A DNA stretch of 57,007 bases from an uncultured Pseudomonadales bacterium. GTDB taxonomy: Bacteria; Pseudomonadota; Alphaproteobacteria; UBA2136; UBA6156. A program made the translations under genes and the position numbers. The notes beneath the pieces were generated by a model that was given only the letters and a program-made list of their open reading frames with translations, was not told the DNA's origin and searched no databases. This document shows positions 41,770 through 44,700 of this stretch, one piece after another. Location: NCBI GenBank assembly GCA_964601735.1, contig CAZROO010000005.1, positions 1 to 57,007 on the forward strand, in the 5' to 3' direction. Numbering within the stretch: position 1 is the stretch's first letter; each line of letters begins with the position of its first letter.

Positions 41770-44700
41770 ATGCCCAAGCGCAAACCCTCTCATCCTCTTA
41801 GCCCCTCATCCTCTCACCCTGTTTCGCCCATCACCCACCTGATGATCCACGGCGCGCGCGAACATAATTTAAAGAACATCTCGCTTAACATTCCCAAGCG
41901 CACGCTCACGGTCATCACCGGCGTCAGCGGCAGCGGCAAAAGCTCGCTGGCGTTTGATACGATTTACGCCGAAGGCCAGCGCCGCTATGTCGAAAGCCTT
42001 TCCGCCTACGCCCGCCAGTTCCTCGACATGTCGCACAAGCCGGACGTCGACCGCATCGACGGCCTCGCCCCCGCCATCGCCATCGACCAGAAAACCACCA
42101 GCAAAAACCCGCGCTCCACGGTCGGCACCATCACCGAAATTTACGACTACCTCCGCCTGCTCTACGCCAACGCGGGCACACCCTATTGCCCCAACCACCC
42201 CGATGTCGAAATCCACGGCTTCACCATCCAGCAAATGGTCGACCAGGTTCTGGCCTGGCCAGAAGGCGCCAAAATCATGGTCATGGCGCCGGTCGTCCGT
42301 GGCCGCAAGGGCGAGTACAAAAAAGAGATGCAACTCTGGCAAAGCCAGGGCTACACCCGCGCCGAAATCAACGGCGAAGTCCACGAACTCGCCAGCGCCC
42401 CCAAGCTGAATAAGAACGACAAGCACGACATCGCTCTGGTTATCGACCGTCTGGTGGTGAAGGAAAATATCCGCACCCGCCTCGCCGACGCCCTCGCCAC
42501 CGCCCTCAAACTCGGCGAAGGCCTCGCCCTCGTCGCCGAAATATCGGATAGCCCCATTCCTGCGAAGGCGGGAATCCAGAAGAGCGCACCTCGGCGTCAA
42601 ACATTCAGCGAAAAACATAGCTGTCCCATCTGCGGCCATGCCACGCAACTGGAGCCGCGCCTGTTCAGCTTCAACAGCCCGTTCGGCGCCTGCCAGGCCT
42701 GCGACGGCCTCGGCGAGGTCCTGTTCTTCGACCCCGCGCTCATCGTGCCGGACGAAAACCTGACGCTCCGCCAGGGCGCGCTCCACCCGTGGAAAGACCC
42801 TAAAGCGGGCATGAACAAAACCAGCACCTACTACCTCAAGCCGCTGGCGGTACATTACAACTTCAGCCTCGACACGCCGTGGAAGAAACTGCCGGAAACC
42901 ATCCGTAGCATGCTGCTCAACGGCAACAACGGCGAGCGCGTCGAGTTCGTGTTCGAGAACGCCTCTGGCCGCAGCAGCTTCAAAACCCGCAAACCGTACG
43001 ACGGCCTCATTCCCATCCTCACCCGCCGCTGGGAAGAATCCAGCAACCCCTACGCACGCGAAGACCTCAACCGCTACCGCAGCACCAAACCCTGCGAAAC
43101 CTGCCACGGCGCAAGACTTAATCCTTCTGCGTTGAATGTTACGCTGCCGCCTAAAAGTACTTCTGTCATGCCGACGAAGGCCGGTATCCACGATAAGAGC
43201 CGTGCGCAAGGCGCACTCAATATTTCAGCTTATTGCTCGCTCCCCATCACGGCAGCTCTTTTGCATACAAGCTGGCTGCAAAAAAACCTCAAGGGCAACA
43301 CCGCCGCCATCGCCACGCCCATCCTGCGCGAAATCTTCGCCCGCCTCGGCTTCCTCAACCATGTCGGCCTCGGCTATCTCAGCCTCGACCGCATGGCAGG
43401 CACGCTCTCCGGCGGCGAGGCCCAGCGCATCCGCCTGGCCTCGCAGATCGGCAGCGGCCTCACCGGCGTGCTCTACGTGCTCGACGAACCCAGCATCGGC
43501 CTCCACCAGCGCGATAATGGCCGCCTGCTCGAAACCCTCGAGCGCCTCCGCGACCTCGACAACACCGTGCTCGTCGTCGAACACGACGAAGATGCCATCC
43601 GCCACGCCGACTTCGTGGTGGACATCGGCCCCCGCGCCGGCATCCACGGTGGCGAAGTCCTCGGCACCGGCAGCGTCAAAGATATTATGGCCAACAAGAA
43701 TTCTCTAACCGCCGATTACCTGAGCGGGCGAAAGAAAATTCTCGTCCCCAAAAACCGCCGCTCCATTGAAGGCTTCATGCCAGCGAAGGCTGGCATCCAC
43801 GCCTATTCTTCCGGCAAATGGCTCACCGTCGAAGGCGCGCGCGGTAATAATTTAAAGAACGTCACGGTGCAATTTCCCGTCGGCGTGATGACCTGCGTCA
43901 CCGGCGTCAGCGGCAGCGGCAAAAGCACGCTGGTAATGGATACCCTCCACACCGCCATCGCCGCGCTGCTCAACGGCTCGCGCGAGCATCCCGCGCCCTA
44001 CGGCAAACTCACCGGCCTCGAGCACATCGACAAACTCGTCAACATCGACCAATCCCCCATCGGCCGCACCCCGCGCAGCAACCCCGCCACCTACACCGGC
44101 GTCTACGGCCCCATCCGCGACTGGTACTGCAATCTTCCTCAAAGCAAGGCGCGCGGTTACGGCCCGGGCCGCTTCAGCTTCAACGTCAAGGGCGGCCGCT
44201 GCGAGGCCTGCGAAGGCGACGGCGTCATCCGCGTCGACATGCAGTTCCTGCCGGACGTCTACGTCCCCTGCGAAGTCTGCAACGGCAAACGCTTCAACCG
44301 CGAAACGCTCGAGATCACCTACAACGGCGCAACCATCGCCGACGTACTCGCCATGACCGTCGACACCGCCTGCGACTTCTTCAAGAACATTCCGCCGGTC
44401 TATAAAAAGCTCGAAACCCTGCGCGAGGTGGGCCTCGGCTACATCGCCCTCGGCCAGCCCGCCACACAACTGAGTGGCGGCGAAGCCCAACGCATCAAAC
44501 TCGCCACCGAACTCTCCAAACGCGCCACCGGCCGCACGCTTTATATCCTCGACGAACCCACCACCGGCCTGCACTTCGCCGACATCGACCAGCTCCTCAA
44601 GGTGCTGCACAAACTGGTCGACGGCGGCAACACCATGATCATCATCGAGCATAACCTCGACATCATCAAAACGGCGGACTGGATAATCGACATCGGGCCC

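Follow-up and report, generated by a model that had tools for sequence, protein, structure and literature searches.

CGTC-1 family repeats inserted in-frame at three sites of a uvrA gene in an uncultured alphaproteobacterium

Palindromic repeats of Rickettsia (Rickettsia palindromic elements, RPEs; Ogata et al. 2000, 2002) reportedly lie in-frame within functional genes, at surface-exposed positions and encoding compatible peptides. The dRS3 repeats of Neisseria mostly flank intergenic mosaic arrays and are integration targets for insertion sequence (IS) elements and filamentous prophages. Here we describe related repeats in a 57,007-nucleotide stretch of DNA from an uncultured alphaproteobacterium (contig CAZROO010000005.1; the whole stretch is referred to below as the window), in which three copies sit in-frame within uvrA, a gene of nucleotide excision repair (NER). 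The repeats belong to the repetitive extragenic palindromes (REPs) tagged CGTC, as defined by Di Nocera, De Gregorio & Rocco (2013, BMC Genomics 14:522; PMC3733652). According to that study, a CGTC REP opens with an unpaired 5′ tag (CGTC, frequently TGTC or CCTC), its stem in families 1 and 2 spans 8 bp with A-T pairs at the first two positions, and it ends in a CCA tail; a 4-nt loop marks the family CGTC-1, which is equated with Neisseria dRS3 and with RPE-6 of Rickettsia conorii. CGTC REPs occur chiefly in Alphaproteobacteria and have no associated transposase.

Copies within genes are part of the published description (PMC3733652). The supplementary table of that study lists VIPAKAGI, VMPAEAGI, VVPAKAGM and SIPAKAGIQ among the intragenic CGTC-1 peptides, and SFPRKRES, CHSRESGNP, DSRFRGND and WIPAFAGMT for other frames of the unit. 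Intragenic REPs were found to be concentrated among genes of replication and repair, uvrA among them, with examples in uvrA (Thioalkalivibrio, and both Opitutus copies), polA, dnaE2 and recB, and in uvrB and uvrC of R. conorii, which carry CGTC units; the authors speculated on mutator effects of REPs in repair genes and gave tolerance rather than targeting as a caveat. A 2025 survey of REPs (PMC12306157) has nothing on CGTC or intragenic copies, no Rfam family covers these repeats, and the strings PAKAGIQ, SFPRKRES, IPAKAGI and RFRGNDG gave no match in the full-text literature.

The uvrA gene of the window encodes a UvrA of 1013 residues (the JGI gene call starts it at M25, position 41842) whose best structure matches are the solved UvrA proteins 2r6f, 9gxk and 3zqj, and whose closest counterpart in a collection of species-representative genomes, at 85% identity, comes from an alphaproteobacterial metagenome-assembled genome. 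The protein is intact, with both ABC ATPase halves, the zinc modules, UvrA_inter (residues 152-256) and UvrA_DNA-bind (321-434) detected by Pfam. Within its gene the motif CCNRCGAAGGCNGGNATCCA has exact matches at 42559-78, 43171-90 and 43780-99, all on the + strand, where shuffled sequences give an expectation of 0.03 for the window. The units begin at 42553, 43165 and 43774, that is, at offsets of 783, 1395 and 2004 from the start at 41770; all three offsets are multiples of 3, placing each copy in frame 1 and bearing out the claim of a first-pass annotation that a palindromic repeat lies in-frame in uvrA three times. Each copy forms a 23-nt hairpin (42556-78, 43168-90 and 43777-99) with an 8-bp stem that starts with AT, a GAAG loop and a CCA tail, and the stems differ between copies by compensatory changes (ATTCC..GGAAT versus ATGCC..GGCAT). 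The predicted hairpins reach -11.5 kcal/mol for copy 1, a weak -7.8 kcal/mol (z -0.8) for copy 2 and -20.2 kcal/mol (z -4.8) for copy 3. Copy 1, read directly as ATTCCT-N8-GGGAAT, is the Neisseria dRS3 core with one mismatch, as had been noted. (The spacing of the copies is nearly even, with gaps of 612 and 609 nt; we see no cause for it and regard it as a coincidence arising from the positions of permissive loops.)

By their architecture the uvrA segments are REPs of the CGTC-1 family, to which Neisseria dRS3 and Rickettsia RPE-6 also belong. Across the window, the tag is TGTC at 11354 and 43164, CGTC at 52186 and 52257, and CCTC at 52318, uvrA copies 1 and 3 carrying the degenerate forms CCCC and CTTC; the CCA tail is present in all seven copies. 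Scanning for the strict 8-bp stem returned matches at 11358, 42556, 43168 and 43777, together with a fifth at 52322 that has a 7-bp stem and a 6-nt loop; all five have at most one mismatch and fold as predicted. The copies at 52186 and 52257 are variants with bulged stems, the latter being canonical in another haplotype (L037). Four copies have the loop GAAG, that at 52257 has GCAG and that at 52186 a loop of 3 nt, and the loop at 52318 has 6 nt as scored, or is GCAG if the stem is taken as a mismatched 8-bp one. To place the repeats more widely, we scanned one genome per species for the ATGCC subfamily (TCATGCC-N3-GNAG-N3-GGCATCCA) and obtained at least 120 matches, mostly in Alphaproteobacteria; in 130 copies among the matches listed, the two unspecified upstream bases give CGTC (80) or TGTC (41), and the loops are GAAG (67) or GCAG (47). 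Further copies therefore exist both in the window and beyond it, and the kinship with dRS3 and RPEs that the first-pass annotation had proposed holds, since CGTC-1 has been equated with both dRS3 and RPE-6. The family, its coding peptides and its association with repair genes were all published in 2013; the uvrA case is a real and tidy example of a known phenomenon and not a new class of element.

The three segments are insertions. In HMMER alignments to Geobacillus UvrA (2r6f) and to 9gxk, gaps of 14, 21 and 14 residues fall exactly at the three copies, and by codon-level alignment of the DNA the inserts measure 39, 48 and 39 nt (copy 2 measured against L001, at 43165-43212, and copy 3 against L035 and L037), adding 13-16 residues and no stop. 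All three copies are absent from relatives at 70-91% identity, with another short sequence at site 1 in P0002 and P0004. In an alignment of 30 sequences covering the closest relatives, no other UvrA has the site-3 segment, not even P0002 (~90% identity); P0003 and P0004 lack the site-2 segment, and at site 1 every relative is short or differs. Since the segments are gapped against the solved structures and absent from relatives, they are insertions rather than ancestral residues, as the first-pass annotation had suggested with respect to typical UvrA. They are, in particular, lineage-specific in-frame insertions of 39-48 nt in an otherwise intact conserved gene whose orthologues lack them.

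Where the inserts fall in the protein points to tolerated positions. An AlphaFold2 model of the window UvrA (mean pLDDT 79.9) predicts coil with pLDDT below 50 at residues 261-272, 465-479 and 668-681, exactly the three inserts. Site 1 lies beyond the UvrB-interaction domain, whose solved constructs 3fpn and 4dfc stop at query residues 260 and 261; there copy 1 encodes PIPAKAGIQ (P262-Q270), 6 residues past the end of that domain and ahead of the CPICG zinc motif. Site 2 lies after the second zinc module and beyond the DNA-binding insertion domain, copy 2 encoding VMPTKAGIH (V466-H474) after the zinc module CETCHG, and site 3 is the linker ahead of the second ATPase half, copy 3 encoding FMPAKAGIH (F669-H677) between the two ABC halves. 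The three sites are outside the Pfam domain cores, and in a 119-sequence UvrA alignment they rank 1, 2 and 4 for length variability among inter-anchor segments. The model thus predicts that the inserted peptides are on the outside of the protein and clear of the catalytic core.

The same loops hold other repeats in other lineages. At site 2, P0007 (70% identity) holds two canonical CGTC-1 units in inverted arrangement, GTCATTCCCGCGAAAGCGGGAATCCAG...CTGGATTCCCGCTTTCGCGGGAATGAC, read as VIPAKAGIQ...LDSRFRGND; among the UvrA sequences in hand, CGTC-1 peptides occur only there and in the window's population. P0005, P0020 and P0002 carry a different 66-bp palindrome, CCCCGGAAG...CTATCCGGGG, at site 2; what lies in-frame there in P0002/L035 and P0005/P0020/L039 are relatives of the palindrome family that is found between genes in the window (52087-52154). 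Site 1 has another repeat-like peptide in P0105, and in L035 (the uvrA of P0002, 320-3280; ~90% identical UvrA) it has a heptamer-like tandem array, (CCTCAAA)x3 followed by CCTCGCA and CCTCGAG, encoding PQTSNLKPRTS. The relative L036 has an inverted CGTC-1 dimer within uvrA plus intergenic singles. Different repeat families in the same UvrA loops argue for tolerance. As for genes at large, about 1 in 130 sampled copies among the matches listed is clearly within a real gene (Lnt, L141), the other long open reading frames (ORFs) that span sampled copies being mostly spurious high-GC frames or N-terminal over-calls, so that the one true internal insertion is too little for frame statistics.

Copies also turn over between haplotypes, of which the 90% cluster of the window UvrA holds several. 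L038 (~1.5% divergent) has all three copies; in its copy 2, GCG stands in place of the window's ACG and the stem is fully paired, with one G-T wobble. L037, a 98.7%-identical haplotype, has copies 1 and 2 and lacks copy 3; around copy 3 the window departs from L037 over a tract of ~300 bp (Table 1), elsewhere by 1.3-2.2%. Upstream of the insert, the differences within this tract are mostly at third codon positions and leave the protein unchanged, which, together with the 22% divergence, indicates a recombination tract from a diverged allele. The L037 tract differs from L035 by 14%, like the 5′ background of the gene (14%; 3′ part 8%), and the window tract differs from L035 by 19.5%; being the more distant of the two, the REP-bearing tract may be the imported one. 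L037 also lacks the copy at 52318-52344 and carries that at 52257 in the canonical perfect form, ATGCCCGC-GCAG-GCGGGCAT, where the window has a 2-nt insertion. Among the haplotypes, then, two copies differ by presence or absence and two further variants repair or break a stem, and the absence of copy 3 from a near-identical haplotype, in a ~300-bp recombination tract, is new here.

The window contains seven CGTC-1 copies, all + strand singles, with three in uvrA, one in htrA and three intergenic (Table 1). The htrA copy contradicts the statement of the first-pass annotation that no other coding sequence carries the repeat: it lies in the region that encodes the signal peptide of HtrA/DegP, and its reverse-frame translation, WMLTFVSMT, belongs to the predicted signal peptide. 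Together the unit and a second hairpin beside it (11354-11405) contribute the residues ...SAQGCACLSWMLTFVSMT... to this signal peptide. A 97%-identical relative (P0125) keeps the copy and reads SAQERARLS over the second hairpin, and the more distant P0126 and P0127 (83% and 74% identity) have ordinary signal peptides of ~20 residues without it. It seems, then, that a REP was built into, or remodelled, the HtrA signal peptide. The order of REP, CGATAA and hairpin is common to uvrA copy 2 and the htrA copy, which raises the possibility of a composite unit, and similar composites of REP and hairpin occur in L171 and L185. A metagenome scan for a REP followed by CGATAA gave 61 matches, mostly due to chance, with about six true REPs (L171, L172, L176, L185 with two, and L211) and no match from the window's population.

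Table 1. Positions of uvrA, of the CGTC-1 copies and of other repeats in the window.
Feature	Position	Strand	Description
uvrA coding sequence	41770..44811	+	ORF of 1013-aa UvrA
CGTC-1 REP copy 1	42552..42578	+	degenerate tag CCCC; stem ATTCCTGC/GCGGGAAT (one T-G wobble); GAAG loop; CCA tail
CGTC-1 REP copy 2	43164..43190	+	tag TGTC; stem ATGCCGAC/GCCGGTAT (one A-C mismatch); GAAG loop; CCA tail
CGTC-1 REP copy 3	43773..43799	+	tag CTTC; perfect stem ATGCCAGC/GCTGGCAT; GAAG loop; CCA tail
Second small hairpin GTGCGC-AAG-GCGCAC	43202..43216	+	3′ of copy 2, past spacer CGATAAGAGCC
Mosaic tract around copy 3	43650..43945	+	~300 bp, 22% divergent from L037
CGTC-1 REP copy in htrA	11354..11380	+	tag TGTC; GAAG loop; CCA tail; within 5′ end of minus-strand HtrA/DegP ORF 9995-11467
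Second hairpin CGCGCA-CCCT-TGCGCG	11390..11405	+	downstream of htrA copy, past CGATAAACA
Intergenic CGTC-1-like copy	52186..52218	+	tag CGTC; longer bulged stem ATGCCACCCCC-TTA-GGGGGTAGGCAT; CCA tail
Intergenic CGTC-1 copy	52257..52285	+	tag CGTC; loop GCAG; CCA tail; 2-nt CG insertion in right arm
Intergenic degenerate CGTC-1 copy	52318..52344	+	tag CCTC; CCA tail
GC-only hairpin	52035-52052		
Palindrome of different family	52087..52154		CCCCGGAAAATCGC...GCGATTTATCCGGGG
8-bp C-rich arrays	34026-34055, 35053-35088, 36832-36868, 41786-41820	+	CCCTCTGA/TCCTCTCA/CCTCTCAT; same orientation

Four intergenic variants of the repeat had been claimed for 52035-52345. Three bona fide copies stand (52186, 52257 and 52318), the first with a predicted hairpin of -23.7 kcal/mol (z -3.2), and what remains is a GC-only hairpin and a palindrome of a different family. 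This second family has the termini CCCCGGAA...TATCCGGGG and a variable interior. In the window its palindrome lies between genes, flanked by the direct repeat CCGGGGTCTTRTCC (52047-61 and 52149-63). The claim that uvrA and mfd both carry repeat inserts also calls for correction. The mfd gene (34553-38095, minus strand) has 8-bp tandem arrays, probably what was meant by its repeat inserts, but no REP-like hairpin and no copy of CGTC-1, and we reject a link between the two genes through CGTC-1 on that ground. The arrays (CCCTCTSA; 3.8-4.6 copies, 30-37 nt) are a repeat class distinct from REP hairpins: those at 35053-35088 and 36832-36868, of about 4.5 units, lie in-frame within mfd and encode ...RMRGSEGQREEE... 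and ...EDERLRGLEDKRK..., that at 34026-34055 closely follows smpB within the smpB-mfd operon, and that at 41786-41820 covers codons 6-17 of uvrA, at its 5′ end as annotated. Among the repair and replication genes of the window (recO, mfd, recG, ssb, holC, rarA/mgsA, hda and uvrA), only uvrA carries CGTC-1. Elsewhere the window holds an autotransporter gene (1184-3667; 827 aa, beta-domain at residues 556-807, passenger with short tandem repeats, Tandem Repeats Finder rows 1679-2009) and a tRNA gene (4061-4134).

Five of the six frames of the CGTC-1 unit are stop-free and the sixth contains TGA. Given their shared orientation, three copies would share a frame by chance with a probability of ~1/9, which becomes 1/25 over the five open frames and ~0.05 with the published frame usage (~35% of single intragenic CGTC-1 in the VxPAxAGx frame, an approximate hand count of the table); the shared frame of the uvrA copies is suggestive, not compelling. 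All seven window copies are on the + strand, including the one in minus-strand htrA, so the orientation shared by the uvrA copies is not gene-specific. The same frame and orientation on which the first-pass annotation remarked are thus observed in all three copies, but the orientation is window-wide and the frame only weakly significant. The window also has a uniform GC skew, (G-C)/(G+C), of ~-0.18 over 54 kb (range -0.10 to -0.29) that reaches zero only after ~54 kb and is far stronger than usual replication skew; in the same orientation, the uvrA loci of relatives have skews of -0.19 to -0.24 (among L036, L037, L038, L039 and L035). A replication-strand hypothesis finds no support as a general property: across 103 loci from other genomes, orientation and local GC skew divided 50:52, with null results at higher skew cut-offs too.

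As described for CGTC-1 (PMC3733652), the window copies combine tag, 8-bp stem starting with AT, 4-nt loop and CCA tail in an alphaproteobacterium, with no associated transposase in the window, and in-frame copies that encode V(I/M)PA(K/E/Q)AGI, W(I/M)PAFAGMT and related peptides have been reported in NER and replication genes. Unlike in that paper, whose uvrA cases are of the GTAG type (Thioalkalivibrio and Opitutus), three separate single units sit in one uvrA in the same frame. Two of the three uvrA tags are degenerate, two window copies are followed on the 3′ side by the CGATAA spacer and a second hairpin, and, with only the window of this genome covered, the copies are same-orientation singles, 3 of 7 of them intergenic, whereas CGTC-1 units are described as mostly extragenic and mostly inverted dimers. 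The uvrA inserts share with RPEs their in-frame position in a functional gene, predicted surface exposure and compatible peptides, but the units are ~27 bp in length compared with 100-150 bp for classic RPE-1, and the host is a high-GC (~60%) environmental alphaproteobacterium rather than a reduced intracellular genome. Copy 1 fits the dRS3 core ATTCC(C/T)-N8-GGGAAT; the cluster at 52035-52345, however, unlike dRS3 and the Neisseria intergenic mosaic elements (NIME), in which dRS3 pairs flank RS repeats of 50-150 bp, consists of three same-orientation units separated by unique sequence plus a different palindrome, and contains no IS element or prophage. GTAG REPs, mobilised by RAYTs (IS200/IS605-like tyrosine transposases, whose genes the repeats flank in REPtrons), are likewise short tagged hairpins, mostly extragenic and occasionally in-frame in genes including uvrA, but they differ in tag and stem architecture; Pfam detected no transposase or recombinase domain, RAYT included, among 50 ORFs of the window, and none is reported for CGTC repeats.

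Taken together, these comparisons make it probable that the CGTC-1 REPs in uvrA are passengers that survive only in permissive loops. Copies would arise by the family's own, presumably hairpin-dependent, spreading mechanism and would also pass between strains by homologous recombination; selection would remove the copies that break genes, leaving those that are in-frame and stop-free in length-tolerant loops. Because uvrA is long and has three tolerant loops, and because none of the other four open frames is as mild as V-(I/M)-P-A-K-A-G-I, the recurrence of one frame in one gene would mainly reflect a filter on survival, with inserts that are probably near-neutral. Several points weigh against such an account. 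Three of the four intragenic window copies are in a single 3-kb gene, with none in mfd, recG, relA/spoT or lptD, a clustering that a pure tolerance filter does not obviously predict, and the excess of REPs in NER and recombination genes published across phyla hints at more than chance (PMC3733652). The window has no gene for a mobiliser, no target-site duplication is discernible at uvrA sites 2 and 3, where the flanks are too diverged for certainty, and near-neutrality is read from a structure prediction. The first-pass suggestion that genes of NER and transcription-coupled repair are either hotspots or unusually tolerant divides accordingly: tolerant loops fit, but the idea of a hotspot was published in 2013 with the same caveat of tolerance, and the other repair genes of the window are without a copy.

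The clustering could instead mean that the inserts have been put to use, the hairpins acting on mRNA stability or translation, or the loop extensions on UvrB loading or DNA binding, so as to tune UvrA and alter NER or produce a mutator phenotype of the kind on which Di Nocera et al. speculated. Such exaptation would fit the excess of REPs reported across species for uvrA/B/C/D, recBCD, polA and dnaE2 (PMC3733652), and likewise the presence of three copies in one gene, the occurrence of the mismatches in copy 1, in copy 2 (L038 form) and in the htrA copy as G-U wobbles on the transcribed sense strand, and the location of sites 1 and 2 beside the UvrB-interaction domain and the DNA-binding insertion domain. 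We nonetheless consider it unlikely: the inserts occupy the most length-variable, low-confidence loops, unrelated repeat families fill the same loops in other lineages, a near-identical haplotype dispenses with copy 3, and copy 2 of the window has a true A-C mismatch and a weak hairpin. Somewhat less likely again is targeted insertion, in which mobilisation would prefer NER genes or their DNA, for example single strands exposed in repair or in transcription-coupled events, making uvrA a true hotspot. The concentration of intragenic copies in uvrA, and a single orientation for all seven copies on a strongly GC-skewed strand, would suit a strand-specific mechanism acting on single-stranded DNA; yet orientation at the 103 loci from other genomes is unrelated to local GC skew, recO and ssb lack a copy as mfd and recG do, copy 3 lies in a recombination tract and so may have come by allelic exchange rather than local insertion, and the variety of repeats in the same loops speaks for tolerance. 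That the PAKAGI segments are ancestral UvrA residues, or resemble the repeat by chance, has a negligible probability. The only possible remnant of an ancestral form is 'AAPAKA' at site 1 in P0004, and it is outweighed by the shuffle statistics (three matches against 0.03 expected), by the gaps in solved structures, by the rarity of the segments among UvrA sequences (absent from all but one other lineage in hand), by the folding of the DNA into CGTC-1 hairpins with compensatory stem changes, and by the near-identical haplotype without copy 3; we regard this reading as refuted.

CGTC-1 REPs as probable passengers in permissive loops of uvrA provide a clean natural example of short selfish hairpin repeats entering an essential repair protein without breaking it. 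They also carry a warning for annotation, in that peptides of the PAKAGI, SFPRKRES and DSRFRGND types in proteins are repeat-derived. It is improbable, though it would matter more, that CGTC REPs favour NER genes for a mechanistic or adaptive reason, either through spread that depends on DNA intermediates produced by these genes or their products, or through tuning of UvrA activity or expression that would give a heritable, reversible change in repair; were tuning the case, recombination between strains would add and remove copy 3. The presence or absence of copy 3 in near-identical strains makes the long-standing speculation that REP inserts in uvrA and other repair genes alter repair or mutation rates testable with two natural alleles.

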